64,000 nt of DNA from a virus. The translations under genes and the position numbers were made by a program. This document shows, piece by piece, positions 11,774-39,323 of this stretch. Every line of letters starts with the position of its first letter. The stretch's first letter is position 1. The DNA lies in IMG/VR virus record IMGVR_UViG_3300018080_000112, positions 79,942-143,941 of that record; one strand, given 5' to 3'. The notes under the pieces were generated by a model that made no database searches, was not told the origin of the DNA, and saw nothing but the letters and a program-made list of their open reading frames with translations.

Positions 11774-12682
11774 TTACCACTCTGTTTTCTCTTCTCTCCG
11801 TCGCATGGACTCTTTCAACTTGCGTCGCTTCTCTTCCCGCTCTTGTTCTTCCTCTGACAACGTCATACCGTCCACAGCTAACGGACCATCATGGAAACCT
11901 GGAATCCCGCCGGAAACTAGGGAAGCACTGTCAAACTCCGCATCATCGATCCTTGTGAAATCTTCCAGCACGGACGTGAATTCAGGATTGATCTCATGAG
12001 AATCATCCCTTGGACAGTGTTGCGGGGGTCCATCCGCTGTTTCCCCGATAACCTCGAAGAATCGCTGTTCCGTAACACAGAAGACCTCATATTTGGTCAT
12101 TTCTGTGCTTTTCTTGATCCTGCCAGACATGCCGACCCCAACACCCGGCGACCCCAGAGAAAAATCGGGTGGTCTGGATGGGTCAGATGTACCTGATTTT
12201 ATCGTTACAGCGCCTGTTGTACCGCCTCCGAAGTGACCACCACGACCCGCACTGGCTCGCAGTGCGCTACTTGTTTCAAAGTTAGGAAGAGACGTTTTTG
12301 GTGCTGGTATGTGCGATTCCTCCAGCCCCTGTTCTCCCACTTTAGTCCACTTGCCTTTGGCGAAAATATACAAGAGACCCGCACTTGTATCCATGCACAA
12401 AGACCCTTCTTCGGCATCATCAGGGAACTCTCCTGTACCTTTTGCAATCTCCACAGACACACGGCGTGTTCCTAGTGGTGCAAATGGTCTCGCTTCCGGG
12501 TCAAAAAGCGCGTCCTCATCTTCCTCTTCATCAAAAGGAAATCCGCGCTCTTCATCCACCATAACGACCTGGATGGCTCTTCTCTCCTCTTTCGCCCTTT
12601 TCTCTCGTTCTTTTCGTCTCTTCATGATTCTCTCAATTGTAGCTTGCGCAAACGGATTTGGTTTCTTTCCTGTGCTCACCAC
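11774..12682 (-). CDS. mosaic hypothetical protein carrying the shared C-terminal tag (KRRKLKESMRRREEKTEW)
   Basis: 302-aa ORF; see findings. Confidence 0.7.
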   Translation of the reverse strand: MVSTGKKPNPFAQATIERIMKRRKEREKRAKEERRAIQVVMVDEERGFPFDEEEDEDALFDPEARPFAPLGTRRVSVEIAKGTGEFPDDAEEGSLCMDTSAGLLYIFAKGKWTKVGEQGLEESHIPAPKTSLPNFETSSALRASAGRGGHFGGGTTGAVTIKSGTSDPSRPPDFSLGSPGVGVGMSGRIKKSTEMTKYEVFCVTEQRFFEVIGETADGPPQHCPRDDSHEINPEFTSVLEDFTRIDDAEFDSASLVSGGIPGFHDGPLAVDGMTLSEEEQEREEKRRKLKESMRRREEKTEW

Positions 12683-14508
12683 TCTGAATCTTCTTCGCGT
12701 CGCTTAATTGACGCCTTCAACAAGCGCTTCTTCTTTTGTTCCTCTGTCTCTTGTGTAGACCAGTCAACACCGACGTGAGCTTGACTCCCGTCTATCATAC
12801 GAACAAGGTCCGTCATATCAGCAAGCGGAACATCAAAGGAGTTGTTTTTGATCGGCGGTAACCCTTCCGCTTCCCGAATCTCGTTGATCGTTCGAACATC
12901 TTGACCATATCTGTCCATGTATTGCCCCCACAGAACTTCGTCTTGTTGTGTTGGAGCGGGAACTGTAACAAATGCTTCGCCATACCTCTCCTGTTGTTTC
13001 TCGTGCTTCTCCAGTATTTTCATCTGTTCAGGAGTAAAAAACGACGCTGGTACAATAGGTTTTTTCTCTTCTTCCTTGCGCAAACCAGAGGTCTCTTTCG
13101 CCTGTTCTGGAGTAAAAAAGGATTCCGAGCCACTGTGTAAAATATCTCCCCACACATCTACAATAGGCTTTTCACTACTTGGTGTCAGTCCCCCCACAAC
13201 GGGGTCAAGGCGCACAAAATCACGAACAACTTGATTCAACCGGTCTAATTCTTGCGCCGACAAATCACCAGAGAACACAACTTCCATCCTTCCGGTGGTC
13301 TCATATACACGAATCAAAACAGGCTTAGGAACACCAGCCTCCACAATCTTTTTTCGCAAAAGCGCTTGATCAATGATTGTGCTTCGAGGAACCTTATAGT
13401 CATAAGAGCGCCTTCTCACCGGGCTTTCTTCCTTGAAAGCATCAAGAAATTTTTCCGCTTCCGGCGTCTCAAAGAAATCACGTGCTTCTTCTATTGTCTT
13501 GAAGACACGAACCTCACCCGGCTTGCCAAGCTGCACTGCGCTTCCTGCAGCAACTGGAACTCTGGTTCCATCCTCTTGCTCAATGGTCATCGTTACCGGG
13601 TCAAACGAACCCGGTATCACCTCAGAACTCATCACGGACTCACCGGGATTCAAGGACTCAGAAACCCGTATAGGTCCCGTGGGATGTGTCGGAGAATGTC
13701 GCCAAGGATCGTCTGGTCCCACTGTACTATCCTCCTGGTTTGGGTCTCCCGCGTTGGTTCGATCATCATCCTCAAAGAAAACAGGACGACCTTGAACCTC
13801 TGACTGGAACTCTGGTTCGGAAGAATGCGCACGTTTCCGCATGCCGGTCACCATTTCCGCGTGTCTCTCATTCGGTGACTCTGTCTTGATCATACTGGAC
13901 TGGATTGCAAAAGCTTGCGCCATAGCCGCGTGGTCAATCTCCATGTGATCGATGTTCAATTGACCCTTGTAACCGGGCGGAACAAACTCAAGAGCCTCTG
14001 CACGTGGAAAAGAAATCGGGTGTATGAACTCTTTTTGTGTTCCGAGAAATTTGACCGTTTGGGTGGTCTTCTCTTTTCTCCGCTCCATTCGTGACTTTAC
14101 TGCGTTCTTTACAGCGGGAACAGCGTGCTTCATATCCACCCACCCAAAGACAGCGTCCTTCGTCCACATCGTTTCTGTGTTCTCATCGAAGTACTGTGTG
14201 CCTTGCGGAGCATCTGACGGCACTTGCTCCCGTCCCTCGAACCCTCGACCTATGTAGAACGGACTCTCGTCTTTTGTGCCACTTATCAGCGCTCCTGGAA
14301 GAGCTTTTGTCTCCGTCATTTCCTTGATCAAATTGTCCACCTTGGAAACATCCTCTGACGAATCTGTGGGCGCAACCCCCACGCCACGAGACTCAAAGTG
14401 TTTACTCGTGGGGATCTCCGGGCTGTCTTGTTTTCTCCTCTTCTTCATGGGAAGCAACTCCTTTGCCTTCGCCAGTAACATCCGCAGTGCGACACTTACA
14501 TCAGCCAT
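12676..14508 (-). CDS. mosaic, largely disordered protein carrying the shared C-terminal tag (KKRLLKASIKRREEDSEW)
   Basis: 610-aa ORF overlapping both neighbours. Confidence 0.75.
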   Translation of the reverse strand: MADVSVALRMLLAKAKELLPMKKRRKQDSPEIPTSKHFESRGVGVAPTDSSEDVSKVDNLIKEMTETKALPGALISGTKDESPFYIGRGFEGREQVPSDAPQGTQYFDENTETMWTKDAVFGWVDMKHAVPAVKNAVKSRMERRKEKTTQTVKFLGTQKEFIHPISFPRAEALEFVPPGYKGQLNIDHMEIDHAAMAQAFAIQSSMIKTESPNERHAEMVTGMRKRAHSSEPEFQSEVQGRPVFFEDDDRTNAGDPNQEDSTVGPDDPWRHSPTHPTGPIRVSESLNPGESVMSSEVIPGSFDPVTMTIEQEDGTRVPVAAGSAVQLGKPGEVRVFKTIEEARDFFETPEAEKFLDAFKEESPVRRRSYDYKVPRSTIIDQALLRKKIVEAGVPKPVLIRVYETTGRMEVVFSGDLSAQELDRLNQVVRDFVRLDPVVGGLTPSSEKPIVDVWGDILHSGSESFFTPEQAKETSGLRKEEEKKPIVPASFFTPEQMKILEKHEKQQERYGEAFVTVPAPTQQDEVLWGQYMDRYGQDVRTINEIREAEGLPPIKNNSFDVPLADMTDLVRMIDGSQAHVGVDWSTQETEEQKKKRLLKASIKRREEDSEW

Positions 14509-15769
14509 CTTTGATCCCGGATTGTTGTGCTTCCACTAGAATCTCTTTTCCTAGCGGAACAAGGTCTTTCGGCTCGAACCCATCTAAGGAAACAAAACCC
14601 GAACACAAAACAGAATCCAGTATCTCTTCAGGAGATTGCTCGGAAGATAGTTGTACCCGAACAGGAGTAGACGAAAAGCGATCTGTATCCTTATCAGGCG
14701 ATAGTAGCTCAACATATACGGCTCCTTTCTGGTAGAAGGCATCCATGGCTCTGTTTATAGCCGACCGGAGCACCTTCACAGAGTCTGGTTGCACCAGCAC
14801 AATATTACCTGATGCACGAGCCGCCATTGATTCAATTGTTGGATCTTGTATGCTGTCAACGTATCTCAGATTCCCATCGATACCGATCCGATACTTCACA
14901 AAAACGGGCGATGTTGGTAAGTAGTAGAACTCCAGGTCAACCGCTTTTTTCGTCTCTGTACTTGCTGCAGATTTGCTTGTTGGCGCTGTCTTAATCGACA
15001 CCGTCCAGACACCGCGTTGTTGTTTGATCTCGTGGGGGTGTTGTTGCCACGGTTGTCCCGGTATCAAGACCTTTGTTCCAGATACATAGGTGATTTGTGG
15101 CATGTGTATGTGACCGGAGATCACCAGGTCAAAACCACGGACCCACTTCTTTGAGATAATCGAGCTTTCTCGAATCACGATCCCCTCGTGATCTACAAGC
15201 TCATCCTTGGCGAGACTATCCACCGGAACATTGTGCTCATTGAGAACAGAGCCAGACACCATTCCATGCGTCACACAGATGGTTGGTTGACCTTCTGTAA
15301 GCGCATAAGGCTTGAACCATTCTTTCTTGAACTGGTCTCGATAGGGAACGGCACACACCGAAATCTTTTGACCATCCGCCAGCCGCCAATCAATCACTTC
15401 CGGTTCATGGGCAACCTGGAAACCAGGAAGGTCTGCAAAAATCTGAAGCGCATGCTGTTCGCCAGAGCGGACCACAAAATCGTGGTTACCCGGTACGAGT
15501 AACACATTCAAGCCAGCATCTGACCACTTCCGAAACTCTGCATAAACCGCATTGAACACATTGATTGTCACCTTGCTCTTTGCATCAAATACGTCACCCG
15601 AGATCACTACATTCTTGATCCTGAGTTGTTCAGAGAGTTGGAGGACCCCGTCAAGGCTATCAAGAGCCGTTTTAAGGCGCGAATTAATTCCGTTGATAAG
15701 ACGACCATACCGCTTATGGTTGTGTGCGTGTATATCGCTGATAACGATAAATTCAACCGATGTTGTCAT
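14501..15769 (-). CDS. sbcD: SbcD/Mre11 (T4 gp47-like) metallophosphoesterase nuclease
   Basis: DIH, GDVFD, GNHD, THG, GHIH calcineurin-like motifs; lies in the recombination cluster. Confidence 0.85.
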   Translation of the reverse strand: MTTSVEFIVISDIHAHNHKRYGRLINGINSRLKTALDSLDGVLQLSEQLRIKNVVISGDVFDAKSKVTINVFNAVYAEFRKWSDAGLNVLLVPGNHDFVVRSGEQHALQIFADLPGFQVAHEPEVIDWRLADGQKISVCAVPYRDQFKKEWFKPYALTEGQPTICVTHGMVSGSVLNEHNVPVDSLAKDELVDHEGIVIRESSIISKKWVRGFDLVISGHIHMPQITYVSGTKVLIPGQPWQQHPHEIKQQRGVWTVSIKTAPTSKSAASTETKKAVDLEFYYLPTSPVFVKYRIGIDGNLRYVDSIQDPTIESMAARASGNIVLVQPDSVKVLRSAINRAMDAFYQKGAVYVELLSPDKDTDRFSSTPVRVQLSSEQSPEEILDSVLCSGFVSLDGFEPKDLVPLGKEILVEAQQSGIKDG

Positions 15770-16286
15770 GTTCGTCTCCCAGATATTTCAAGGATTCTTC
15801 TGTTACCAGATAATTCCAGCGCTTTGATGGGATCTGTTGAGAGGGGTCGTCAAGAACAAGGACCTCCGCCGGATAACCAGCATACCGACACTTCCAGTCA
15901 AGTAACTCCTTCAAAAAGAATTCAACAATCGAACCCTTGTTATAAGCGACCACTATCTTATCCAGAGTAACCAGCGGATCATTCTTGAGAAAGAGACCCA
16001 CACCGATCTGACAAATGGATTGTTTTGGGAAAGCAAGCCCGGATCGAATCAACCGAAACAGATACACAGCGGCTCTCTCAATATCCGTACTCGGTTCATT
16101 CTCTTGTAGCTCTCGCCAGCCGTGCGAGATATCCGATTTCCGCTTTGCAAGATCTTCCGCATCTCGACCAATTTCATACCGAGACGTTCCTTTTGGATAA
16201 ACCTTGACCTGTTCAACATAGGTTCTGTGCCCCACGTCAACCCCCGTTGTGCTCCTGTTCCAGCTTGCATATAATAGAACTCTCAT
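15753..16286 (-). CDS. hypothetical protein
   Basis: ATG 16286 with AGGAG RBS; the ORF-track start at 16340 falls inside the promoter. Confidence 0.7.
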   Translation of the reverse strand: MRVLLYASWNRSTTGVDVGHRTYVEQVKVYPKGTSRYEIGRDAEDLAKRKSDISHGWRELQENEPSTDIERAAVYLFRLIRSGLAFPKQSICQIGVGLFLKNDPLVTLDKIVVAYNKGSIVEFFLKELLDWKCRYAGYPAEVLVLDDPSQQIPSKRWNYLVTEESLKYLGDEHDNIG

Positions 16287-16319
16287 TCGTTTCTCCTTTT
16301 GCCTCTTACCACTCCCTAC

Positions 16320-16349
16320 TAGAGACACACTTTTTGTCAAAAGCGTACC
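16320..16349 (-). promoter_or_regulatory. phage-specific promoter (copy 5)
   Basis: GGT ACGCTTTTGACAAAAAG TGTGTCTCTA, nearly identical to copy 1. Confidence 0.75.
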
Positions 16350-16373
16350 ACTAGAGAAAAGAAAAGTATCAAA

Positions 16374-16449
16374 TCAAGACTGTTGACTCTTTCCGATCAC
16401 TTCTTTTTCAAGGCTGTTGACTTAGAGATGGTTTGAGAGGGGCTGTTGA
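16374..16449. repeat. three TCAA-N5-TTGA-like boxes upstream of promoter copy 5
   Basis: TCAAGACTGTTGA at 16374, TCAAGGCTGTTGA at 16408, half-degenerate GGCTGTTGA ending 16449. Confidence 0.75.
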
Positions 16450-16472
16450 CTGGAATGATAATCAGGTCAAGT

Positions 16473-16485
16473 GTTAGGTCCTAAC
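16473..16485. repeat. 13-bp palindrome (copy 3), supplies the recA TAG
   Basis: GTTAGGTCCTAAC. Confidence 0.9.
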
Positions 16486-17623
16486 CTTTCTTTTTCTTCT
16501 TTCCCGTCTCTTTCGGGTCTGGTGCTTGCGGGATCTTGTCACTTCCAGGAAGTTCCGGCATCGTGGGTTTGGGCTTGCCTGCAGGGATCACTTGTGTCGC
16601 CCGTTGTTCCTCCATCTTTCGCAGAACGTCCGCCTTCAACGCCTCGAATCGTTCCTCATTCTCTCGAAGTTCAATGACAACATTATCTTTGCCTTGACCC
16701 AATGCTTTCGCGCCATACTGATACCAGGACCCTTTCTTTTCGATGATACCGAAATCCACGGCACAATCCATGATTTCGCGGTAAGGGTCAAAACCACGAC
16801 CAAAAATCAAGTCAATCTCCGCTTGCGCAAAGGGCGGAGCGAGCTTGTTCTTGACTACCTTCACCCGTACCGTGTTCCCAAGAACATCTTCGCCTTTCTT
16901 GAGTGTGGCGATACGCCGGATATCCAGCCGTACAGATGCATAAAACTTCAAAGCATTTCCGCCGGTAGTGGTCTCTGGATTTCCGAACATGACACCAATC
17001 TTCTGGCGAAGTTGGTTGATAAAGATCACCGTTGTCTTTGTCTTGCCTATGATGCTTGTCAGCTTCCGCAAAGCTTGACTCATCAGGCGAGCTTGTAGCC
17101 CCATGTGACTGTCGCCCATATCACCTTCGATCTCGGCTCGCGGAACGAGCGCCGCCACAGAATCAACCACAGCAAGATCAAATCCGCCGCTACTCACCAC
17201 GATATCCAGGATCTCCAGCGCTTGTTCTCCATGGTCTGGTTGAGCCAGATACAAGGCATCTGTGTCAACGCCAAGGTTCTGAGCATACGCCAGATCAAGC
17301 GCATGTTCCGCATCGATAAAAGCGCACGCGCCGCCACGTTTCTGAATCTCTGCGATTGCATGCAGTGTCATTGTGGTCTTGCCACCGGACTCAGGTCCGT
17401 ATATCTCGATTACCCGTCCCCTTGGATAACCACCGACACCCAACGCGATATCGAGCTTCATGCTTCCCGTGGGGAATGTATCAACGACCTGAACGGGCGC
17501 ATCACCCAATTGTTGAATCGCACCCTTTCCGTACTGTTTCTCGATTAGATTCACCGCCGCCTGACGAGCTTTTTCTCTCGGATCTTTTGGTTCCTCTTTC
17601 GGGTCTTTCGTCTCTTTTCCCAT
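16481..17623 (-). CDS. recA: recombinase RecA
   Basis: GPESGGKTT Walker [34 protein letters not shown]. Confidence 0.97.
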
Positions 17624-17758: not shown

Positions 17759-18985
17759 TTAACCCTGTTCGGCTTGCTTCTCCAGGTATGCCTCGACATC
17801 ATCGACACTTTTGGGTTTCTCTTCTGCAGGAGCCTCCGAAGCGGGTGCCGCTTGTGGTGCGGGTGTCGGCGCAGGTTTGCCGGGTGCAGGCTTACCAGGG
17901 GCTGGCTTACCGGGTGTAGGCGCGGTCTCCGCCTCCATAGCCGGACCCTTGAACCACTTGAGACCAGTCACGGCGCGGAACGTGGCCGCACAGTGCGGAA
18001 CAAGCGCACAATCGAAACAGAATTGCTCTTTGGGATCTGGTTCCTGGCTGTAACACCATGGAACATCATCCTCTTTGGTGAAACCAGCCACACCATTCTG
18101 AACAAGCTGTTCCTTGCTCATCACCGCGCCGCCAGTGATCAACTGTTCGAACGCCTCCGGGTTGAGTCCAGGGGCGGGAGGAGGCGCGGAGTGTTCCGGC
18201 AACGCACCAGCCGAAGGAGCCGAACCAGGAAGGCTATTCTGGGAGTTGGTGTCTTCGCCGTAGTAGAGCGCCCGTGTCTCATCATAGGTGTTGCTCTTCC
18301 ACATGCGATGCTCATCCAGGTTCCCCTCACCACCCATGTACTTTTCCAGGGTCTCCATCTCGCTCTTCTCGGGAAAGACGGGACACTTTTCCGGGATAGG
18401 GAGGAAGCTGTACGTGGTGTTGAGACCTTCGCCGGTACGAGACATCTCCAGGTCATAACCTTCGAAGGGGTCCGTCACATCACCCCAATGAGCGCTTGCG
18501 AACAGGTCCAGCATCTTCTCATGAGCCATCCAGCCGATAGACAAGAACTTGATCTTCGCTTCGCCGATCAACTCTTGCTTCTCCTGAACCTCTTTGTCAG
18601 TCGCCTTGAAGACAGGGTCATCACGGTCGATCACCTGGTACACAAAACGGCGGTTGGGTTTGAGCTTCTTCGAACGAGACGCATCATCAGGGTGACCCGT
18701 TTCAGCAAGCTGTTCGCGCTGTTCGCAGACAAAGCACTTGTCTTCTCGCAACTGCGCTGGACAGTTCGCCCGTTTGCCGCCGGTGAGGTCCCAATGCTGA
18801 TACACCTTCTTATAAGGCAACTCCGCGTTTGGACCTTCAGCGGTCCAGGGGGGGAGAATCCGGATACGGTAGGTGATACCGTTCTTGGGGGTCAAAAAGA
18901 CCGCCGGAGTTCGCGACCCTTTGATAGGGGCGTCTGTGGTTTTCTGTTCTTTCGTCTTCTCTGTGTTTACTTTCACAAATCCCAT
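17759..18985 (-). CDS. T4 gp32-type single-stranded DNA-binding protein with extended Pro/Ala-rich and Cys-cluster C-terminus
   Basis: RIRILPP, CP...C..C Zn site, VIDRDD, DVTDPFEGYDL; acidic C-terminal end; between recA and the uvsY-like gene. Confidence 0.8.
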   Translation of the reverse strand: MGFVKVNTEKTKEQKTTDAPIKGSRTPAVFLTPKNGITYRIRILPPWTAEGPNAELPYKKVYQHWDLTGGKRANCPAQLREDKCFVCEQREQLAETGHPDDASRSKKLKPNRRFVYQVIDRDDPVFKATDKEVQEKQELIGEAKIKFLSIGWMAHEKMLDLFASAHWGDVTDPFEGYDLEMSRTGEGLNTTYSFLPIPEKCPVFPEKSEMETLEKYMGGEGNLDEHRMWKSNTYDETRALYYGEDTNSQNSLPGSAPSAGALPEHSAPPPAPGLNPEAFEQLITGGAVMSKEQLVQNGVAGFTKEDDVPWCYSQEPDPKEQFCFDCALVPHCAATFRAVTGLKWFKGPAMEAETAPTPGKPAPGKPAPGKPAPTPAPQAAPASEAPAEEKPKSVDDVEAYLEKQAEQG

Positions 18986-19112
18986 CGGTTTGTTTTCCTT
19001 TTGTTTCCCTAAAGGCAACGCCTTTTCGGTTCCTTTTGAGTTCCTTTTTACTTCCCGCGATCAAAGTTGTTCTTGACCTATCATAGTTGTGGGGAACACG
19101 ACTTTCCCACGA

Positions 19113-19754
19113 CTATCGCCGTGGTTTTCCTAATGGCAACGATCTTGTTTGGTGGTAGTCTGTCTCTTCCTGTGGGGTTTCACCTCCTTTTTGACTCTCT
19201 TTCCGCAATCTCAGCTTCTCGTTGTGAATATCCGAAAGTTTTCGAGACTGCGACGTTAGCTCTCTCAACTTTTGCTCTGACCTCTCTTCCATCTGGCGGA
19301 TCATGGGATTCAAGTTACCGATCTCCGACCGCTCCTGAGCGCCGACCGAGATCAACATCTTAGATCGTTCGGAAAAGGATTCTGCTGCAACCCGACAAAG
19401 GTCCGCTTCCAGCTTAATGTCAAGAACAGCATCCCGCATCCCTTGAACACGGTCGTCCTCATCCACTTCCATCTCGATAACCTTCATCGCAACTTTGTCG
19501 CCCTGTTTCTTGTAACGGTTCTGGATCTCTCTGAAAATCTCCGCCTCCAGCTTTTTGAGTTCCATCTTCGCCTTCGCCAGCTTCTTCTTTGAGTAAGCTG
19601 AAATCGCGCCATAGTACGCGAACATTCCGGGCTGTTCACACATCTGGTGTGTGAGATTCTCAGAGTCAATCCCGCAAGCTTCGATCCACTCGTTTGCTTG
19701 TTGCACAAACGCCGTGAGATCCATTTCCATTTCGCCAGTGAGTTTGAGTTTCAT
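19113..19754 (-). CDS. UvsY-like recombination mediator (coiled coil)
   Basis: Helical protein with SFSERSKMLIS..A..R.E pattern next to SSB/RecA; ATG 19754 with AGGAGG. Confidence 0.6.
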   Translation of the reverse strand: MKLKLTGEMEMDLTAFVQQANEWIEACGIDSENLTHQMCEQPGMFAYYGAISAYSKKKLAKAKMELKKLEAEIFREIQNRYKKQGDKVAMKVIEMEVDEDDRVQGMRDAVLDIKLEADLCRVAAESFSERSKMLISVGAQERSEIGNLNPMIRQMEERSEQKLRELTSQSRKLSDIHNEKLRLRKESQKGGETPQEETDYHQTRSLPLGKPRR

Positions 19755-19852
19755 TTGAGATAACCTCCTTTGGATTGGTCTTGTTAGACCGTCTACCAAA
19801 CATTCCGGTTTTGGTGTGGCGCAACTTTTGTTTGTTGCGTTTGTTATGTATA

Positions 19853-28734: not shown

Positions 28735-28764
28735 TAGGGACACACATTAGACCAAAGTGACACC
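28735..28764 (-). promoter_or_regulatory. phage-specific promoter (copy 7)
   Basis: GGT GTCACTTTGGTCTAATG TGTGTCCCTA. Confidence 0.7.
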
Positions 28765-28798
28765 ATTTTTTCTTTCGCTTGTTGAAAAAAAGAACACA

Positions 28799-29237: not shown

Positions 29238-29555
29238 TTACTTCTCCGTTCCCCTGAACTTTTCCGCCTCCTGTGGTGTCTTAGGAAACCCCAACAAAAG
29301 AAGGTTCACTTCCTCCTTTGTCTCGATTGTCAACAAGTGGTCCCTTATCCGCTGCAGCAAATCAAACCAGGAAGGAAGGTCGAGCGAAGCTGTTACTGTA
29401 ATGGTCAAAAGAAGGATGTTCATCACCGTGGGGTGGTCTTCTGGTTTGTGGCTCTTCAAGATATCATCCACCACAGAGAAGGAGCCAGCCAAGAGTAGCT
29501 CATCTACGGCGTCAAACACTTCGTCAATTTCGTCATCTGTGACGGTCATACTCAT
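29238..29555 (-). CDS. hypothetical protein
   Basis: ATGA-coupled ORF. Confidence 0.65.
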   Translation of the reverse strand: MSMTVTDDEIDEVFDAVDELLLAGSFSVVDDILKSHKPEDHPTVMNILLLTITVTASLDLPSWFDLLQRIRDHLLTIETKEEVNLLLLGFPKTPQEAEKFRGTEK

Positions 29556-29800
29556 GGTGTTGACTCCACCGCATCTTTTTTCTTGTTGTGTTTCTCTCGA
29601 AGCTTTGCAGTGTGCTCGCGGTTTCTTTGTGCTACCGCTTCACTAAGCTCGAAACTGATTGACCGAATCTCTTCCCAGAGCGCCGTATCATCCAGAATTT
29701 CCTTCCTATCCATCCCCTTGTAACCAGGGGAAGCGGAACAATAACCGGCATGCAAAAACGACGATAGATCCCCATGTGCGGCGGCGCTAATAATTCTCAT
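29552..29800 (-). CDS. hypothetical protein
   Basis: GGAG RBS, coupled to next ORF. Confidence 0.6.
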   Translation of the reverse strand: MRIISAAAHGDLSSFLHAGYCSASPGYKGMDRKEILDDTALWEEIRSISFELSEAVAQRNREHTAKLREKHNKKKDAVESTP

Positions 29801-29816
29801 TGAACTTCTCCAAAAG

Positions 29817-29829
29817 GTTAGGTCCTAAC
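29817..29829. repeat. 13-bp palindrome (copy 5), supplies the primase TAA
   Basis: GTTAGGTCCTAAC. Confidence 0.9.
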
Positions 29830-30903
29830 CGTACTGTATCCCGAAATCCGAACGTTGATCAAGAGAGCAACTTCCTCTTTACTCTCTACATACACCGATT
29901 CATCGATGTAGTTACGAGTCTTCTCTGTTCCAATCTCATCCGGGTCTCCACCAGAGAGACAAGCAATCTTCACAGAGTCGAAACGTCCTAGCAAATAACT
30001 TGCGGCGGTCAAAAGGGGAGGTCTCCCATAACCACCCGTCTTCTTGCCCCCGAACCGACCTTTCGCCTCCAACCGCTTCTTTACAGGGTTGGGGACCTTC
30101 CAGCTATCCGGGTCATAACACAAGACCACCTTGCGAACACCGTACTCTTTCAACAAATTAATCTGAGCTTGGCTGATCTTGTTTCCGAATGTAGCCACGG
30201 CATCTTCACCCGTTTTCAGCGCAGAAAAGACACCTTCGCAGATGATAACCTCATCGAAAGAAGACGCCTTGTCAATGTTGAACAAACAATTGGCTCCTGA
30301 ATAGCCAGCCGGGGTCAAGTAGCGGAGTTGGTGTGTTCCACTTGTGTCTCTTGCTTGCCAGAATACCAGCTTGTTACGTTGCCAAACAGGGAGAATAAGG
30401 CGACCGGAGTACTTTCCGAATACACAACCACCAAATTTCATCTCCAGCATGGTATTCCAGTTTATACCGCGATTAAGAGCATATCGGTTCACCGTGGGTA
30501 TCCGGGGGTCTCCTAGTGGGATGAAGTTTTCTGGTAATTCCAACGCTTTCTTGCTCACCTGAATTCGACCGTGACTCGTGCGTACAAAGGTTTGAGTACC
30601 GTCCATCAGCGCAAGCTGTTTCTTAACGTAATCCTCAAAGGAATCATCCCCTGGTATCGCGTTGTATTCCCCCATCACCTTGAACAACTTCATTCCCCGA
30701 ACACCCGTCAGATATTGCAACAACTCCTCTCTGTCGGGTGACCACTGACAACGATGACAGTAGTACAGATCGTCCGTTACGGTAATCCACAACTTTTCAT
30801 ATCCGCCACAGTACGGACAATCAATCTTGATTTGCTTATCATCGACCGTAACCGCCTTGTAACCGATCTTTCTTTCATGGAGGAACCGCAACATGTCAAA
30901 CAT
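29818..30903 (-). CDS. DNA primase (Zn finger + TOPRIM)
   Basis: CPYC..CHRC, GRLILP, WQAR, ICEG, YDPD, GDPDE. Confidence 0.88.
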   Translation of the reverse strand: MFDMLRFLHERKIGYKAVTVDDKQIKIDCPYCGGYEKLWITVTDDLYYCHRCQWSPDREELLQYLTGVRGMKLFKVMGEYNAIPGDDSFEDYVKKQLALMDGTQTFVRTSHGRIQVSKKALELPENFIPLGDPRIPTVNRYALNRGINWNTMLEMKFGGCVFGKYSGRLILPVWQRNKLVFWQARDTSGTHQLRYLTPAGYSGANCLFNIDKASSFDEVIICEGVFSALKTGEDAVATFGNKISQAQINLLKEYGVRKVVLCYDPDSWKVPNPVKKRLEAKGRFGGKKTGGYGRPPLLTAASYLLGRFDSVKIACLSGGDPDEIGTEKTRNYIDESVYVESKEEVALLINVRISGYSTVRT

Positions 30904-30912
30904 AGGTCCCCC

Positions 30913-31383
30913 TCACCAGCTATCCGCTGTTCGTTCCAAACCGACCTTGTTCAAATCTTCCTCCGAAAAAGCTCGAAGCGGCGTGCGCCCTGAAATAACC
31001 AGAATCCCCACATCCATCTTGTGGCGGTCACAAACCGCTTTGATGAAATCTCGAAACCCTTCCCGTTCTACAGGGTCCATATTCGTGTCCAGAACATTAA
31101 TCGCGATCACTTTTGTACCTTCCGGAACAGTTGTCACTTCATGTTCCAGGTCCCGAACCTTCTCCGCCAGCTTGGGATCAATAATCTCCCCCTTGAAAGA
31201 CAACTGCGCTGACTTTCTCTCCTTCAACAACTTGATCTCCAACTGAAGAGCCGCCAATTCAGATGCTGCGTTACGAACCAGCGTTCGCCAACTCTTGCGC
31301 ACCGGTTCTGTGGAGACCTCCTCAAAGCGCTTGTCTGACAACATACGCTCACAAGCTCGAATCAATCCTTTTATTCCCATCAT
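30913..31383 (-). CDS. hypothetical protein
   Basis: Between helicase and primase. Confidence 0.65.
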   Translation of the reverse strand: MMGIKGLIRACERMLSDKRFEEVSTEPVRKSWRTLVRNAASELAALQLEIKLLKERKSAQLSFKGEIIDPKLAEKVRDLEHEVTTVPEGTKVIAINVLDTNMDPVEREGFRDFIKAVCDRHKMDVGILVISGRTPLRAFSEEDLNKVGLERTADSW

Positions 31384-31392
31384 GCTGATCCC

Positions 31393-32718
31393 CTATCCCG
31401 CGAGCGGATGGCGAACAAGACACATCTTCGCCATGTCCGTCTTCAACGGTCCAATCGTCACCTTCGCAATACCATCCCTGTTCTTGTCCACCCGCAAAAT
31501 GACCTCGTGCTTCTCTCGTAACTCATCATTCATCGTAATCGTGATGATGTAGTCACAAATCCCCAGAGAATCCCAAGAACCCGCTACATGGGTTCCAGTC
31601 ACCACCTTTGCAGTCGCGCCCTTCTTATTCGTCTGTGACGCCGTCCATCCAACTGCGTTCTTGTCCACACACAACCCACGAAACTCTTCCAGGATCTCTT
31701 GAAGTTCAATGTGTCGTTGTTCTCGTGGTGTGGTCGGTTTAACAATCGCCGCATAGTCCAGGACAATCAGGTTCGGTCGCCAGCGCTCCTTTCGCTCTAA
31801 CAGGTCAAGAGACGCTCGCATATCATCAATTGTGGCTCCTTTTGTTGGATAGCGCTTGATCCATAACCGGCGACCAAATCGCCGCGCCATCTTCTGCATC
31901 TCACCCAAAACAAGATCTGTTTTCGGTCTCAGATGGCTCATATCAGTTCCAGTGAAACCAGCATCCATCCGATCCGCATTCTTCTCCGCACTCATCTCAA
32001 ACGAAAAAAGGGCTGTGTTTGCACCAGACCAGATCCCGCGCCTTGCAATCTGACCTAGCGCCACAGATTTCCCGCCGTTTGTCGGAGCGATGAACAGACC
32101 AATCTCACCCGGACACACACCGCCGTATCGTAAGAGCCGATCAAGCTCAGGAATGCCAGTAGGGAGAACACCCGTCAAATCATCATCATCATCCGCTCTA
32201 CGGCGTATCCTCTCGTCAACCGTCTCAAAGTACCAAAGACCACCCGCTTCTGTCGTGGTGATGACAGAATCCGCCTTCTTGACGATCTTTGAGATCTCCA
32301 GAAACTTCCCTTGTTGAATCCGGGGAAGGATCTCTGTGACCGCCTCGCGCCACCCTTGAGCTTGCGCGAAACCAGCCACCACATCGGTTGTGTATTCTTT
32401 GCTGTATGGAATCTCATCGAAAGAGCTATTTACAAGCTCAGCCAGCGAGGTTTCGATACCGCTTCCACTCCACACCTTCTCTACTTCGTTAAGTACTTGT
32501 GCTTTGCGTGGTAGAAGCTTGTAGGTCGAAAAAAAGCGGAGGACGATACTGGAAAGCGCTCGTTTCTCTGGGGTCGCAAAATACCCCGGCTTGACCCAAC
32601 GAACAGCCGCATCTGCAAAATCATGATCTTGCACCATCAGGCGCAAAATATCCTCTTGCGTCTCATTATCAAATGTGTACTTAGGTTCTGGTTTCTCTTC
32701 CTTCGGTTTGCCCGTCAT
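31393..32718 (-). CDS. DnaB/gp41-type replicative helicase
   Basis: APTNGGKS, SFEM, VLDYA, WTASQTN, KNRDG; GGAG RBS before ATG 32718. Confidence 0.9.
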   Translation of the reverse strand: MTGKPKEEKPEPKYTFDNETQEDILRLMVQDHDFADAAVRWVKPGYFATPEKRALSSIVLRFFSTYKLLPRKAQVLNEVEKVWSGSGIETSLAELVNSSFDEIPYSKEYTTDVVAGFAQAQGWREAVTEILPRIQQGKFLEISKIVKKADSVITTTEAGGLWYFETVDERIRRRADDDDDLTGVLPTGIPELDRLLRYGGVCPGEIGLFIAPTNGGKSVALGQIARRGIWSGANTALFSFEMSAEKNADRMDAGFTGTDMSHLRPKTDLVLGEMQKMARRFGRRLWIKRYPTKGATIDDMRASLDLLERKERWRPNLIVLDYAAIVKPTTPREQRHIELQEILEEFRGLCVDKNAVGWTASQTNKKGATAKVVTGTHVAGSWDSLGICDYIITITMNDELREKHEVILRVDKNRDGIAKVTIGPLKTDMAKMCLVRHPLAG

Positions 32719-32973: not shown

Positions 32974-33183
32974 TCACCAGTCGGAATTCTCTTCTCGCTT
33001 CTTGATCGAAGAATGCAAGCGCTTCCGTTTGCTGTTTCCTCGAATCTGATTCGGTGGAATTCCCAAAAGCTGACACGCGGTGTCTCTATCCAACACACCC
33101 AAACGCTTCAACTCCAGAATCTTGTCTTCATCGAACTCAAGATCATTCGCGAACCGTTTTGTTTGCAACTCATAAAAAACCAT
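32974..33183 (-). CDS. 69-aa protein carrying the shared C-terminal tag (KRKRLHSSIKKREENSDW)
   Basis: AAGGA RBS; directly downstream of promoter copy 8. Confidence 0.7.
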   Translation of the reverse strand: MVFYELQTKRFANDLEFDEDKILELKRLGVLDRDTACQLLGIPPNQIRGNSKRKRLHSSIKKREENSDW

Positions 33184-33221: not shown

Positions 33222-33251
33222 TAGAGACACACATTTCTCCAAAAATACACC
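33222..33251 (-). promoter_or_regulatory. phage-specific promoter (copy 8)
   Basis: GGT GTATTTTTGGAGAAATG TGTGTCTCTA. Confidence 0.75.
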
Positions 33252-33305
33252 AGTAGAAGATAAACAATCAAACAATTAAAAGAAATGAGTAAGGAAAAGG
33301 AGGGA

Positions 33306-33641
33306 TTATCGACCGGCGCAGATACGGTAAGAAGTGCCCAGAATCATCTCCATATCACAACGGTCACAACCATGCGACCGTACCGTATTTCCAGGATAAT
33401 GAAGCGCGTCATGAGACCACCCTTGGAGTGTCGCCAACCTCTTTGCGGAACTCGTAGACGAAAGAGATACAATATCCGGCTCAACCACTGCGATGTGTTT
33501 ATATCCGACCATGCTCCGATACAACAACTCTATCGTAATTCTCTCGTGCTTTGTAAGATCATCCACTTCGTACTTCTCTCCCTCTGTAAAGACAAAGAGA
33601 GTTTGACGCATAAGCTCTCGGGTCCACTTTGGAGGAGACAT
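33306..33641 (-). CDS. hypothetical protein
   Basis: ATG 33641 with AGGAG RBS. Confidence 0.55.
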   Translation of the reverse strand: MSPPKWTRELMRQTLFVFTEGEKYEVDDLTKHERITIELLYRSMVGYKHIAVVEPDIVSLSSTSSAKRLATLQGWSHDALHYPGNTVRSHGCDRCDMEMILGTSYRICAGR

Positions 33642-33649
33642 TTCGGCTC

Positions 33650-34411: not shown

Positions 34412-34467
34412 TTTTGTGTCTCCTTCTTTCAGTGGCACAGTGCGCCACAAACGAATGTGAAAGTGTT

Positions 34468-35184: not shown

Positions 35185-35590
35185 TCGCCGCCGCCTCTTT
35201 CTCTTTGTCAGTAGACAGCGCCTCTCGGTCATACAGTTCCTCTTGTAGCGGAACCATAAAGTGAGGCATCGCCAGCAAAAAGAACTCCACATCATCAATC
35301 TGGATAAAGAACCCGTACATGGAACAACGAAACTGTTCGACACCGGCGGTCTCATACCAGTACGGGTCCTCTTTCAAGCGCTTCATACCGCGAAGAAGAC
35401 CAGACTGCGAGACCATCATCTTCGCCACAAACGCCGCCATTCCGAACTCCCCAAGAGCGTCTGCGCCGGACCTCATAATCTCTTTGACGCCTTCTTCTGT
35501 CTCCAGCTTCCGTTTTAGCTCTTCCTCTGTCATGGTCGAATCCTTCAACTCGATGTTAGGACCTAACCCTTCTTTTTCAGCCATCACCAT
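35174..35590 (-). CDS. hypothetical protein
   Basis: Overlaps both neighbours. Confidence 0.65.
   Translation of the reverse strand: MVMAEKEGLGPNIELKDSTMTEEELKRKLETEEGVKEIMRSGADALGEFGMAAFVAKMMVSQSGLLRGMKRLKEDPYWYETAGVEQFRCSMYGFFIQIDDVEFFLLAMPHFMVPLQEELYDREALSTDKEKEAAANDE
35555..35567. repeat. 13-bp palindrome (copy 6), 16 nt after the J-domain gene stop and inside the next ORF
   Basis: GTTAGGACCTAAC. Confidence 0.9.
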
Positions 35591-36060
35591 CCCCTTTCCT
35601 GAAATATTGCATCCCTTGCTTCTGTCAGCTTTTTCGCCGTTTCTTCATCACCACCGTGGTCCGGGTGATGTTTGCGCATCAGCGCGGTGTACGCCGCCTT
35701 AATCACCTCTTTTGGCGCGTCCTGGTTCACATACAAAACAGAATAAAAGTCATCAGAGACAGATGGAATTGACACACCGGGAGAACGAAAACTCGGGTCT
35801 TGCTGGTGTGGTTTCCCTTGCGCACGGTCAAAAGGAGACTCATATCGAACAGCCCACGAAGCATAAATGAATCGAGACTCAATTTCCCTTTTCAACGACC
35901 GGTGAAAATACCACAGCTTCAACTCCGAGTCATACCGTCTCTTTTTCGGTTCTTGTCGGAGCGCCCACGAGGACCAAATCGGTGCGCCTGGTATCGGGAC
36001 TGACACAGCCAACCACCCCGCTTTACCAGGAGCATCCCAGATGTAACCGATCAAGCTCAC
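35584..36060 (-). CDS. J-domain (Hsp40-like) protein with C-terminal J-domain
   Basis: DFYSVL...EVIKAAY..L.RKHHPD. Confidence 0.85.
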   Translation of the reverse strand: MSLIGYIWDAPGKAGWLAVSVPIPGAPIWSSWALRQEPKKRRYDSELKLWYFHRSLKREIESRFIYASWAVRYESPFDRAQGKPHQQDPSFRSPGVSIPSVSDDFYSVLYVNQDAPKEVIKAAYTALMRKHHPDHGGDEETAKKLTEARDAIFQERGW

Positions 36061-36063
36061 CGC

Positions 36064-36771: not shown

Positions 36772-36783
36772 CCTCTGAACTCC

Positions 36784-38349
36784 CTATCCTGGAATGATGT
36801 TAAAACAGTTCTGTTCCTTATAGATCTTCAACCGAATCAAGGAATGTTTCGCCAGCGTTCTGTGTTGACCATCTGCAAAATCCACAAGGACAAGGTCATC
36901 ACCACGGAGACCACGCCCAAACCGCTGCAAGACTCCGATCACGGATTTACCAGCCGCTGCATTGATCACCACGTCAATATCCGGCAAATCAACACCTTGC
37001 TGGAAGATATCACTTGCCAACAAAACACGCAACTTTCCTTCTCTAAAAGAAGATAACGCTTCCTCTCGTTCCTCCAAGCTCGACTCACCATCCAACTTTG
37101 TATGAGCTATGAAGGTCTCTTCTTCATCCTTGTCTTTCTCGGTCCACAACATAGTGGAGAGACGATCCCCGTGGGGAATACTCTTAAACAACACAAGGAT
37201 CTTTTTCCCTTGCTCATAATAGTCCTGAACAAGGCGAGTAATACGGCGGTTTCGTGGCTCATACCAAACAATCCCGCGATCATACACATCATTCCAATTG
37301 CGGGGGTCACCGCCAGATGATCCGCCGATTTGAATGAGCATGATAGTTGCTTCTGGAATAACACCCGCCTCCACCATCTCTTTGTTTGTAGACCGGTGAA
37401 CAATGTCACCGAATCCAGCTATAACCTTGAGATTAGAAGCGTCCGGTCGGTCCAAGGGTGTACCACTCATACAGACCCGATAATACGACGGACAAGACAT
37501 GATGAGATTGTACGCTCCTTTTGCGGCGGACCCGTGACCTTCATCGAAAATGAACAGTTCAACCTTGTCCAGAAAAGCGAGCAAATCTTTGTGGTTCTGG
37601 TGAGCTTTTTTCTTGAGAATATTGGTCATTGTGGTAAGACCAGCCACCGTGATGAAACCCGTCCGGAAATCCCCCTCAACGCAATCTTGAACTGTCAATG
37701 AGTGCTCGTCTAGCCAAGGACCCAAACGGGTCTCAAAACGCTTCTTTGTCTGTTTAACGAGCGAATTTCCGTACACCACAAAGAGAGTCCGCATCCCCAT
37801 CCGACCAATCAGACCAGCCGCCGCCTCTGTCTTACCGCTTCCTGTCGCCGCCCACCAAATACCTGTACCAGGAACACGATAGGAGGAAACACGACCAACA
37901 CGCGCCGTTAGATGCTCCCGGTCTTCCTCAGAAAGAGTCAGCAAAGGGAAATCAACCGTATCCTCTACAGATCGCCGAATGGAAGCAACCATGTCCTCCT
38001 GATAATCACGCAACGCTTCAATACCTGAAAGAGTCTCTGTGGGGGGATATCGTGACTCTGGCTTGTCCCGGAGATCAATCACCACATACAGCGCCTTGAT
38101 CACATTCAGCGTTGACACAACATGGGGAACCAGACCCGTGGGGAAGATGAACTCTTTGTTGTAATCTTGACTCTGACCCAACCGCTCGTAACCATCCCAT
38201 TTTCCTCTGATATAGGCGTCTGTAAAAGCATAACCATCCTTACGGAAAGAGGTCGCCATCTTCAGCGCTTCATAAACGTGTGGTGGGAATTGTTGGCGAG
38301 GGGAGTGATAGATTCGACTATAGTGATTCAAGATGTCTATAATAAACAT
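36784..38349 (-). CDS. superfamily 2 DNA helicase (UvsW-like)
   Basis: LRDYQ, ATGSGKT, DEGH, SGT, GVDLP, QRFGRGLR. Confidence 0.9.
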   Translation of the reverse strand: MFIIDILNHYSRIYHSPRQQFPPHVYEALKMATSFRKDGYAFTDAYIRGKWDGYERLGQSQDYNKEFIFPTGLVPHVVSTLNVIKALYVVIDLRDKPESRYPPTETLSGIEALRDYQEDMVASIRRSVEDTVDFPLLTLSEEDREHLTARVGRVSSYRVPGTGIWWAATGSGKTEAAAGLIGRMGMRTLFVVYGNSLVKQTKKRFETRLGPWLDEHSLTVQDCVEGDFRTGFITVAGLTTMTNILKKKAHQNHKDLLAFLDKVELFIFDEGHGSAAKGAYNLIMSCPSYYRVCMSGTPLDRPDASNLKVIAGFGDIVHRSTNKEMVEAGVIPEATIMLIQIGGSSGGDPRNWNDVYDRGIVWYEPRNRRITRLVQDYYEQGKKILVLFKSIPHGDRLSTMLWTEKDKDEEETFIAHTKLDGESSLEEREEALSSFREGKLRVLLASDIFQQGVDLPDIDVVINAAAGKSVIGVLQRFGRGLRGDDLVLVDFADGQHRTLAKHSLIRLKIYKEQNCFNIIPG

Positions 38350-38369
38350 GTATCTCCTCGAATAAAGGA

Positions 38370-38432
38370 AAATTCAAGAGCCGGTGCGAAGATAACTTAT
38401 TAGTGGGGAGCAGCGCACCGACTCCTGAATTT
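38370..38432 (-). terminator. ~19-bp stem with ~25-nt loop and U-rich tail (terminator/attenuator/processing site)
   Basis: AAATTCAGGAGTCGGTGCG ... CGCACCGGCTCTTGAATTT; G-U pairs favour the minus strand. Confidence 0.55.
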
Positions 38433-38441
38433 TCGTGAACA

Positions 38442-39323
38442 TTACCAGTCAGATTCCTCTTCTCGCCGCCGCATGGACTCCTTCAACTTTTGCTTCTTTT
38501 CCTCTTTCGTCAAGCGACCTTTACGCGCCTTTTTCATTGAAGCTTTCGACTTCGCCTTGACCTCTTCCTGTGCTGGTGTGAGTTCCGGTTTGGGCTGAGC
38601 CGCCGGTTTCGGTGTAGGCTCTGGTGTCGGTTCTGGTTCTGGCTCTGACGCCAGACTGGTTGTGTGCTTCCTTGGCTTACCCACGGTCTTTGGTTTCGGC
38701 TTACCCGCCTTTGGTGCAGACGGCGGTGACACGGTGTGTCCCAATCCCGTCAAGATCTCTTCAAGACCCGCCACACTACTGATCTTCGGCATGTGAAGAT
38801 CTTCCGGCAACGGAAGCGAACCAGGTAACTCCGGAAGCGTCTCCGCCACATCTAACATCACATTGGCAAGAACACACTCTTCTGTGTACTTCTGGCGCAC
38901 CTTGCTCTGCGTCCGCAAGTCAAAAATCTCTGTGATATCTTCCTCTTTATCCGAATAGGAAGACACAATCGCAGATGTACCGTGAACGTTAGTCCAACCA
39001 GTCAGCAACGCAAACAGGTCTTTCTTGATATGTGACGCCAGCTTTACAACGGCAACCCACCACTCTGCAGACCACTTTTTCATCCCCTTGAAAGCAACTA
39101 TCTCCACCGGCTTGTGTGTCTTTAGTGCTTCTATTACCATTCGAGCTTGTTCGCTTCGTTCGTGCCCCTTAATAGAATTGATAGTGAACGCCAGATCCAT
39201 CTCCGGCAATTCATTCTCAACGCAAGCCTCCAAAATAAAGTGAGCTTGCGACATTAGGTTCTTGATTGCTTCTTCCTCATATTTTAACTGTGTCCTGATC
39301 ATTCCGTTTTCTCCTGCTCCCAT
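38442..39323 (-). CDS. hypothetical protein carrying the shared C-terminal tag (KKQKLKESMRRREEESDW)
   Basis: Directly downstream of promoter copy 9. Confidence 0.7.
   Translation of the reverse strand: MGAGENGMIRTQLKYEEEAIKNLMSQAHFILEACVENELPEMDLAFTINSIKGHERSEQARMVIEALKTHKPVEIVAFKGMKKWSAEWWVAVVKLASHIKKDLFALLTGWTNVHGTSAIVSSYSDKEEDITEIFDLRTQSKVRQKYTEECVLANVMLDVAETLPELPGSLPLPEDLHMPKISSVAGLEEILTGLGHTVSPPSAPKAGKPKPKTVGKPRKHTTSLASEPEPEPTPEPTPKPAAQPKPELTPAQEEVKAKSKASMKKARKGRLTKEEKKQKLKESMRRREEESDW

Follow-up and report, generated by a model that had tools for sequence, protein, structure and literature searches.

Why should proteins that otherwise have little in common finish on the same short peptide? 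The question is raised by a window of 64,000 nucleotides (the whole stretch of viral DNA analysed here), in which a preliminary description had reported four proteins with shared C-terminal residues. The four open reading frames are present on the minus strand and their last residues are as described. F302 (11774..12682; 302 amino acids) is largely low-complexity and without known family, its tag being formed by the last 18 codons (11777..11830, minus strand). Its start overlaps the stop of G610 (12676..14508), an orphan of 610 amino acids (tag at 12679..12732, minus strand) that lies directly downstream of a Mre11/SbcD-like phosphoesterase (14501-15769). H69 (32974..33183; 69 amino acids) consists of two short helices and then the tail (tag at 32977..33030, minus strand); it is the first gene after a promoter-like motif and is found upstream of a DnaB-like helicase and a primase. 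I293 (38442..39323; 293 amino acids) combines a conserved N-domain, a disordered linker rich in Pro, Lys and Glu (residues 196-268; 38520..38738, minus strand) and the tag, which together with a conserved lead-in makes up the last 25 residues (38445..38519, minus strand). Its gene is located just upstream of a SNF2-like helicase (36784-38349) here, in a close relative and in the sister phage G2.

In a genome-wide scan of the 144-kb phage contig, nine proteins were identified as sure carriers, representing seven unrelated families, and one more as a doubtful carrier. The phage is uncultured and its genome is 89% complete. The five further carriers, all on the minus strand and given in genome coordinates, are A155 (4851-5318; 155 amino acids), M117 (5312-5665; 117 amino acids, with a shortened tag), B255 (5676-6443; 255 amino acids), the WGR-like C155 (18485-18952, outside the window; 155 amino acids) and E142 (44370-44798; 142 amino acids). 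The bodies of the tagged proteins are unrelated, as had been claimed for the four, the exception being three paralogues encoded in tandem (4851-6443). For most of the carriers no lead was obtained from Pfam, PHROG, PDB sequence searches or the ESM Atlas. The doubtful carrier is a methyltransferase (genome coordinates 43222-43926, minus strand), which was downgraded because its homologues in other phages already have a similar basic C-terminal helix; this helix is a feature of the enzyme family and the extra residues amount to only about five. Two Trp-ending proteins of the window were rejected, a J-domain protein (35584-36060) and a protein of 156 amino acids (30913-31383), since neither fits the register of the tag.

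The core of this tag, PHI-[KR]-[KR]-R-E-x-x-S-x-W, has eight matches in the proteome of roughly 215 proteins and 41,023 amino acids, all of them terminal, and eight in the six-frame translation, each with a stop codon directly after it. Residue shuffles give 0.013 expected matches anywhere, a figure that is illustrative, since the expression was derived post hoc from the members. A search of the genome with a tag profile returns these termini only. Scanning all C-termini by expression and profile thus enlarged the set to nine with terminal matches alone, and the concern that the motif might be equally frequent at internal positions does not hold for this genome, which has no internal copy, although a protein of one relative does contain one.

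The full register comprises Leu at -14, a hydrophobic residue at -10/-11, Arg at -7, Ser, Thr or Ala at -3 and Trp at -1, followed by the stop. Including Leu -14, it is observed in the four window tags, in C155, in the I293 orthologue of metagenome contigs L005/L006, in all five tags of G2 and in the end found in L126, a further relative; A155, B255 and E142 fit from -10 on only. The terminal Trp is present in 9/9 carriers, and position -3 is Ser or Thr in seven of the nine (Ala in C155, Glu in the shortened tag of M117). Positions -11/-10 are Ser-[Met/Ile] here, and the four window tags, unlike those of the other five carriers, have Glu-Glu at -6/-5. Overall, the tail has a net basic charge, with Lys equal to or above Arg in 6/9, and the window tags hold four to five acidic residues. 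A linker before the tag is clear in I293 and C155. In a single-sequence AlphaFold2 model of C155, of low confidence overall, the tag is predicted as a helix (residues 138-152) after a coil linker and is the most confident part of its chain; the low-confidence model obtained in the same way for H69 does not predict a helix in the tail.

Is it the peptide that is conserved, or the DNA beneath it? Nucleotide identity among the tags is 35-78%, each pair uses different codons for 3 to 8 identical residues, and Ser at -3 is encoded by both the AGY and the TCN families, in agreement with the earlier proposal of peptide-level conservation. On this codon evidence, the conservation reflects selection at the level of the peptide. 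The same observations bear on the idea of a nascent-peptide or termination-control element, or of a DNA or RNA element translated by accident. The ribosome exit tunnel holds a peptide of roughly 14-18 residues, and the conserved span of about 14-18 positions before the stop is close to that length. Nonetheless, the tagged genes use all three stop codons, the distance to the next gene varies from a 7-nt overlap to 190 nt, nucleotide identity is low with mixed Ser codon families, and an arrest peptide would have no use for a disordered tether, so that this explanation is very improbable. The idea that the tag arises incidentally from a Shine-Dalgarno sequence or another DNA element was rejected as well, given that codons and downstream spacing vary.

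The I293 orthologue of L005/L006 indicates how the parts of a carrier evolve. It is 66% identical overall, with 77% identity in the N-domain, 39% and 15 gap columns in the linker, and 84% without gaps in the tag (last 25 residues), where half of the identical residues are on different codons; synonymous change is saturated throughout. By this comparison, the tag is under purifying selection in the orthologues while the linker drifts. The sister phage G2 (TerL 51% identical, replication module syntenic) has five proteins that end in L-x6-R-[RK]-K-x-S-D-W. They include tagged orthologues of I293 (23% identity, E 3e-11, likewise before the helicase) and of C155 (39% identity), both in the same replication-module synteny; most carriers are not the same in the two phages. 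Leu -14, Arg -7, Ser -3, Asp/Glu -2 and Trp -1 are common to the tags of both, whereas -6/-5 is [RK]-Lys in all G2 tags and Glu-Glu in the four window tags, a lineage-level shift that is what co-evolution with one reader predicts. The same kind of W-ending terminus occurs in L126 (TerL 50%). Further TerL matches of 45-58% identity, from the same clade, are on contigs of 60-230 kb. G1, the closest sister by TerL, is nevertheless without the basic tag; the orthologues in L005/L006 and G2 have kept it. Judged by this distribution, the tag is old and lineage-tuned, and predates the split from the sister phages.

The lineage-specific rewording is also relevant to the proposal of direct nucleic-acid binding, in which the helix, rich in Lys and Arg, would contact DNA or an RNA hairpin and the terminal Trp would stack on a base, in the manner of lambda N. 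The tail does have a net basic charge and is found on proteins of DNA metabolism, and repeated palindromes and boxes, abundant in the genome, would offer possible targets. Against this, a co-evolving protein surface would explain more readily the change at -6/-5 from acidic here to basic in G2, and a protein pocket that reads the free carboxylate is what the strictly C-terminal position and the conserved Ser/Asp/Trp end suggest; the window tags also include four to five acidic residues. Arginine-rich motifs of the lambda N type are dominated by Arg, work anywhere in a protein and bind a defined hairpin, in contrast to a strictly terminal tag in which Lys outnumbers Arg in several carriers and at least equals it in 6/9. 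We therefore regard nucleic-acid binding as quite unlikely.

The distribution outside these phages was addressed by several searches. A direct search of IMG/VR for relatives of the 610- and 293-residue proteins found none; a first alignment of the helicase gave no relatives and a second only distant loci without tags. A strict back-translated tag pattern had no match in IMG/VR or in GTDB genomes and two in metagenomes, both of them the I293 orthologue. Tag-profile searches of 5.8 billion proteins (word-based) and of 1.84 billion proteins (exhaustive) had no matches outside this phage and its close relative. This profile finds all of the phage's own tags and misses the true sister tags of G2, and for this reason the database negatives say little about the wider distribution. 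Literature searches found no description of the motif.

What kind of partner could read such a tail? The surroundings of the tagged genes include Mre11-like, RecA, gp32-like SSB, PolA, primase, DnaB and SNF2 helicase genes; all carriers lie in the replication/recombination module or in early-type regions, and none in or beside a recognisable head gene. A promoter-like motif is present in seven copies, three of which directly precede tagged genes: I293 (39343..39374, minus strand, 29 nt upstream), H69 (33222..33253, minus strand) and the WGR-like 155-residue protein outside the window. Two of the four window genes had been described as the first after a phage-specific promoter, and these correspond to I293 and H69. 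The remaining copies are in front of small non-structural genes and of the untagged operon for a CobS-like AAA+ protein, CobT and a sigma factor (28735..28766, minus strand). The class also serves the helicase operon and no structural gene, neither TerL nor tail genes.

This context weighs on a second proposal, in which the tail would bind the inside of the procapsid, the portal or the scaffold, so that the carriers are packaged and co-injected with the DNA. The T4 capsid-targeting signal is N-terminal and is cleaved off. Loading could work as with the cargo-loading peptides of encapsulins or the T4 capsid-targeting sequence, which are likewise portable addresses on unrelated proteins. Encapsulins have an HK97-like shell, and their unrelated cargo proteins are as a rule targeted to it by C-terminal peptides (PMC7925596, PMC8346489). 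A DNA-protecting cargo is plausible too (the WGR DNA binder, possibly the methyltransferase). The sequence of the tag is, however, unrelated to these signals, and it has neither a link to head genes nor a late-gene context: all tagged genes are among replication or early-type genes, three of them follow the promoter class that also drives the phage sigma-factor operon, the conserved orthologues are in the replication module in both lineages, and no protease-site pattern was seen beside the tag. Replication-module position and a non-structural promoter thus argue against capsid loading, one of the options first put forward, which is unlikely. Gene positions and the shared non-structural promoter favour a replication/recombination hub instead.

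Hubs of this sort that recruit partners through short tails are well known, and the tag resembles each of them in part. In T4, the clamp-binding motif comprises the LDFL ends of gp33 and gp55, plus the polymerase tail (PMC9690074). By analogy, one short C-terminal peptide on unrelated phage proteins may dock on a single replication-linked hub. The T4 motif is hydrophobic and acidic, whereas the tag is a basic helix ending in Trp; compared by eye with Q-L-[SD]-L-F, Q-x-x-L-x-L and the T4 L-D-F-L, 0/9 tails fit, and no sliding clamp was detected in the 89%-complete genome with PF00712 or PF09116. A conserved protein of 228 amino acids beside the SSB was considered as a hidden clamp and rejected, its alignment looking helical and coiled-coil-like.

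The bacterial SSB tip D-D-D-I-P-F and the tails of T7 gp2.5 and gp4 are acidic and end in an aromatic residue. They share with the tag a flexible linker and a terminal aromatic with a free carboxylate, and the window tags are acidic just before the end. In those systems, however, the tip belongs to the hub and serves many readers, while here many proteins carry the tail. Moreover, the tail has a net basic charge, and four of the nine carriers lack the acidic stretch. The analogy with SSB tails suggested at first is therefore only partial, extending to linker and aromatic end but not to charge. The gp32-like protein (17759-19018), which has a Cys-rich extra domain, ends in a different helix and the carriers are non-SSB proteins. 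In the sister phages an SSB with a D-I-P-F type end is found alongside W tags, which means that the two systems coexist. An anticorrelation between SSB-tail charge and tag charge across lineages was discarded, the pattern being broken by L125. Class I PDZ ligands follow [ST]-x-hydrophobic-COOH, and the last three residues fit in 7/9 carriers, but conservation of the tag extends over 14 residues, far longer, and no PDZ domain was detected in the 89%-complete phage genome.

Since no phage clamp was found, docking on a host hub is conceivable, be it the beta clamp, SSB-interaction sites, RNA polymerase or the ribosome. The sequence is nevertheless outside the pentapeptide and hexapeptide consensus for the beta clamp, and a phage partner that evolves fast would account more easily for lineage-specific rewording, which leaves little probability for a host hub.

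A further alternative is that the tag serves an ATP-driven machine or chaperone, as a degron for timed removal by a host AAA+ protease, as a handle for CobS/CobT, or for DnaK by way of phage J-domain proteins. Unfoldases classically recognise free C-termini. Among the phage's own products are a MoxR-type AAA+ protein (CobS-like) and its VWA partner (CobT); this pair is conserved in all three lineages, adjoins tagged genes in G2 and is preceded here by the same promoter class. There are also genes for a J-domain protein and for a protein containing six DnaJ zinc-finger repeats. Known ClpX, Lon and tail-specific-protease degrons, on the other hand, are non-polar or end in LAA-type residues, unlike the tag; a long tether and a 14-residue helix are not obviously needed for degradation, and nothing ties CobS/CobT to peptide recognition. 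This option is accordingly an improbable one.

Taken together, strict terminal position, unrelated carriers, selection while the linker drifts, and retention in sister phages with lineage-wide rewording support the view that the tag is a portable peptide-level label, presumably for one common reader. This much of the original portable-tag proposal is upheld; its list of receptors (capsid, import, replisome or RNA polymerase, degron) has only been narrowed. We infer that the tail has a protein partner, that this partner is common to all carriers, and that it belongs to the replisome; a replication role of the tagged proteins is suggested by gene position only. The reading that we put at about an even chance is that the nine carriers share a short linear docking motif for the same partner site, most likely on a phage replication/recombination component. 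The tail would be an amphipathic basic helix of 14-18 residues, usually hanging on a disordered Pro/Lys/Glu-rich tether, with fixed contacts through Leu -14, Met/Ile/Leu -10, Arg -7, Ser/Thr/Ala -3 and the terminal Trp, whose carboxylate is free. In this way, seven or more unrelated phage proteins would dock on one site of one partner, to which the wording of the tag would be tuned within each phage lineage. Candidate clients are the WGR-type DNA-binding protein, the companion of the SNF2-like helicase, the two proteins behind the Mre11-like nuclease and the small helix-turn-helix-like protein in front of DnaB, accessory factors that would be concentrated where the phage DNA is copied and repaired. 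A bolder version, to which we assign a rather low probability, sees in the tag a private addressing code of a clade of large marine/sediment phages, with about ten clients and one co-evolving reader that is neither clamp nor SSB. This reader might be the AAA+-VWA pair CobS/CobT or an as yet unrecognised scaffold in a replication factory.

It is through shared docking tails, such as clamp motifs and SSB tips, that replisomes and repair machines bring in varying sets of factors. A tail with a new sequence marks about ten orphan proteins of this uncultured phage and provides a functional handle on proteins without a database explanation, in that they may have the same place of work. The 18-residue peptide would be a simple bait for the hub of phage DNA metabolism, and the natural specificity variants (this phage versus the G2 type) allow a test of co-evolution. 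The tag may also give the widespread and unexplained phage CobS/CobT pair a testable role and, if the private code were true, it would point to a general mechanism, so far undescribed, by which large phages arrange their proteins within the cell.

The source of the sequence is a linear virus contig of 143,941 bp, 89% complete according to CheckV, of which the window is the final 64 kb, and nearly all of its genes lie on the minus strand. The near-identical contigs L012 and L015 run beyond the start of the record (thymidine kinase, DUF1653, T5orf172 and a 237-aa gene), which means that the 144-kb record is incomplete at that end, in agreement with the CheckV estimate. The preliminary description had reported four open reading frames of the window that share a C-terminal peptide ending in Trp (the tag), and they are present, all on the minus strand, with the terminal residues quoted: F302 (302 aa, 11774–12682), G610 (610 aa, 12676–14508), H69 (69 aa, 32974–33183) and I293 (293 aa, 38442–39323). 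Reading all C-termini across the genome added five carriers: a tandem trio of paralogues of 255, 117 and 155 aa (genome 4851–6443, outside the window), which have an N-terminal domain in common and all bear tag variants, that of the middle one (117 aa) being shorter by two residues; C155, of 155 aa (genome 18485–18952), with a weak WGR-domain match; and a 142-aa protein with the tag at its C-terminus (genome 44370–44798). More than 10 metagenome contigs, from samples of hypersaline or sediment origin, have an array identical to that of the trio (L001). The sole match of C155 in the PDB is a non-significant one (E 0.5) to an uncharacterised chain of Bacteroides. A methyltransferase of 234 aa (genome 43222–43926, phrog_15480) has a similar C-terminal end, and its membership is doubtful because, in an alignment with homologues of four unrelated phages, the terminal basic helix is a trait of the enzyme family, only about five last residues being extra. 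Apart from the trio, the bodies of the carriers are unrelated outside the tag, as had been claimed for the four window proteins, and the tagged proteins were orphans in every library tried.

The tag is a real and strictly terminal feature. In an alignment anchored at the C-terminus, the sure members all have a hydrophobic residue at −10, Lys or Arg at −8, Arg at −7, Ser, Thr or Ala at −3 and Trp at −1, to which the four window tags and C155 add Leu −14 and Ser −11, and the 4-3-4 spacing places the shared residues on the same face of a helix. The core regular expression, PHI-[KR]-[KR]-R-E-x-x-S-x-W, has 8 matches in 41,023 residues, all at the extreme C-terminus and none internal, and 8 in the six-frame translation of the genome, every one followed by a stop; shuffled proteins gave 0.013 matches, a figure that is illustrative, the expression having been written after the members were known. 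A separate search of the genome with a tag profile returned the same termini only. Trp is the last residue in 11 or 12 of about 145 proteins, its frequency being 1.5%. The claim that conservation lies at the level of the peptide is borne out: in pairs of tags, 3–8 identical residues are encoded by differing codons, nucleotide identity is 35–78%, and Ser −3 is written with AGY as well as TCN codons. Tagged genes also vary in stop codon and in spacing to the next gene. Taken together, these differences exclude both a recent DNA duplication and an overlapping nucleotide element. A 13-bp palindrome, G-T-T-A-G-G-W-C-C-T-A-A-C, occurs in 28 copies genome-wide, one of them (genome 44338) directly 3' of the tagged 142-aa gene; no general association of these copies with tags was seen across the genome.

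A back-translated strict-tag pattern led to two metagenome contigs, L005 and L006, on which an I293 orthologue precedes the same SNF2-like helicase (85% identical). Between I293 and this orthologue, the N-terminal domain is 77% identical with 2 gap columns, the Pro/Lys/Glu-rich linker 39% identical with 15 gap columns, and the last 25 residues 84% identical with none, and about half of the identical residues in all three regions rest on different codons. The contrast between tag and linker implies that the tag, which the orthologue has retained, is under purifying selection while the tether drifts freely, which is the hallmark of a short linear motif carried by a flexible arm. In the single-sequence AlphaFold2 model of C155, a coil linker leads into a helix spanning the tag, the part of the chain predicted with the highest confidence; the tail of H69 remains coil in its predicted structure.

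The terminase gene (TerL) lies at genome 71851–73602 and has relatives 45–82% identical on large contigs. Three IMG/VR records of sister phages were examined in full: G1 (161 kb, TerL identity 58%), G2 (104.6 kb, 51%) and G3 (23 kb, 58%). The source phage and G1 share a syntenic replication/recombination module, in the order helicase, J-domain protein, DnaB, primase, CobS, CobT, sigma, PolA, gp32-like SSB, RecA, Mre11-like nuclease, SbcC and TerL; G2 has most of it in the same order, and matching for orthologues did not find the J-domain protein, sigma factor, PolA or CobS there. Five G2 proteins end in L-x6-R-[RK]-K-x-S-D-W. The tagged protein immediately upstream of the G2 helicase is the orthologue of I293 (23% identity, E 3e-11), and a tagged WGR protein is that of C155 (39% identity); since orthologous carriers are tagged in both lineages, the tag predates their split and has outlasted most of the carrier sequence. 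A contig with TerL 50% identical, L126, encodes a 332-aa protein with a similar tag end (14868–15866), which also has an internal copy ending K-S-S-E-W at about residues 60–72; a small tagged gene may have fused with the gene beside it, or the tag may work internally as well.

The tag is also tuned to the lineage: the four window tags have Glu-Glu at positions −6/−5, where every G2 tag has [RK]-Lys, as co-evolution with one common reader would predict. Direct binding of nucleic acid by the tag is disfavoured, given both this change of charge between lineages and the strictly terminal position. The basic tag is absent from G1, whose weak WGR-like protein is acidic but preserves the spacing of hydrophobic residues and an Ala-Glu-Trp end, and acidic Phe-ending tails are found on several proteins of G1 and of the contig L125. 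Acidic tails whose last residue is Phe or Trp (E-D-D-T-E-F, L-E-E-D-L-F, V-L-F-D-F and E-E-D-A-E-W), one of them on the weak WGR-like orthologue, occur at L107:15757–16425 (G1 95757–96425), G1 96595–97287, G1 111941–112252 and L125:4395–5000. These acidic tails may represent a re-tuned form of the tag system or its replacement, and the clade appears to have made such a change more than once. Profile searches found the tag nowhere beyond the source phage and a close relative, and since the same profile also misses the true G2 tags, these negatives are no evidence of a restricted distribution.

The tagged genes are co-located with replication genes. An Mre11/SbcD-like nuclease (window 14501–15769) is directly upstream of G610 and F302, H69 precedes the primase and DnaB, I293 precedes the SNF2-like helicase, and RecA, a gp32-like SSB, an intein-bearing PolA, a sigma factor, CobT and a CobS-like AAA+ protein also surround them. 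A strongly conserved promoter-like motif, unlike a standard sigma-70 promoter in appearance (GTGGTG, 5 nt, TTTGGA-A-rich, then TGTGTCTCTA[TA]), occurs in about seven copies on the coding strand (minus; window 39343–39374, 33222–33253 and 28735–28766; genome 60235, 48559, 19046 and 12533). The copies front non-structural operons, one of them that of CobS/CobT/sigma, and none precedes TerL or tail genes. Three of the seven stand directly before tagged genes (I293, H69 and C155), against about 0.4 expected with 9 tagged among about 150 genes; the observation that two of the four window genes come first after a phage-specific promoter thus holds for this putative promoter and extends to C155. From the placement of the motif, the carriers are taken to be produced alongside the replication proteins rather than together with the particle. 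Among the functions listed in the preliminary description, docking to the replication machinery is accordingly the favoured one, and loading into the capsid is disfavoured by the gene context.

In this clade, the gp32-like SSB (window 17759–19018; L113:3652–4920; L126:1139–2323) includes a further conserved Cys-rich module, P-W-C-Y ... C-x2-C ... C, after which come a long linker of Pro and Ala and a short tail. In G2 and L126 the tail is of the bacterial D-I-P-F type, and in the source phage, G1 and L125 it is a different amphipathic helix. Between it and PolA, a 228-aa protein (window 19113–19799), conserved in G1 and G2 and helical-looking in alignment, may by its position be a UvsY-like recombination mediator. 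Inteins differ by lineage: PolA in the source phage (window 20371–23856), DnaB (14176–17247) and RecA (29455–31539) in G1 (L103–L104), and RecA in L125. A 158-aa protein (window 35584–36060), conserved in G1 and G3, bears a J domain with an HPD motif at its C-terminus, and a 1005-aa protein (window 5584–8601) has six zinc-finger repeats of the DnaJ type (CXXCXGXG); the phage seems heavily invested in Hsp70 co-chaperone parts.

The clamp-binding C-terminal ends of T4 gp33, gp55 and polymerase (PMC9690074) and the aromatic-tipped tails of SSB and T7 resemble the tag in working principle, but it lacks their defining sequence features, so that the analogy with SSB tails drawn earlier stands for the principle and not for the sequence. 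Neither a sliding clamp nor a PDZ domain was detected in the 89%-complete genome, and a literature search found no paper describing the motif. The tag may be classed as a C-terminal motif for hub docking whose sequence is new. Besides capsid loading and nucleic-acid binding, both disfavoured, the rival readings retained are that an AAA+ machine or a chaperone grips the tag (CobS/CobT, DnaK via the J-domain proteins of the phage, or a protease) and that its docking partner is a host hub; a nascent-peptide effect is unlikely. The best-supported reading, in which the binding of a protein, the existence of a single partner and its identity are all inferred, is that of a tethered C-terminal docking helix: the helix would plug several accessory proteins into one site of a common partner, most probably part of the phage replication/recombination apparatus.
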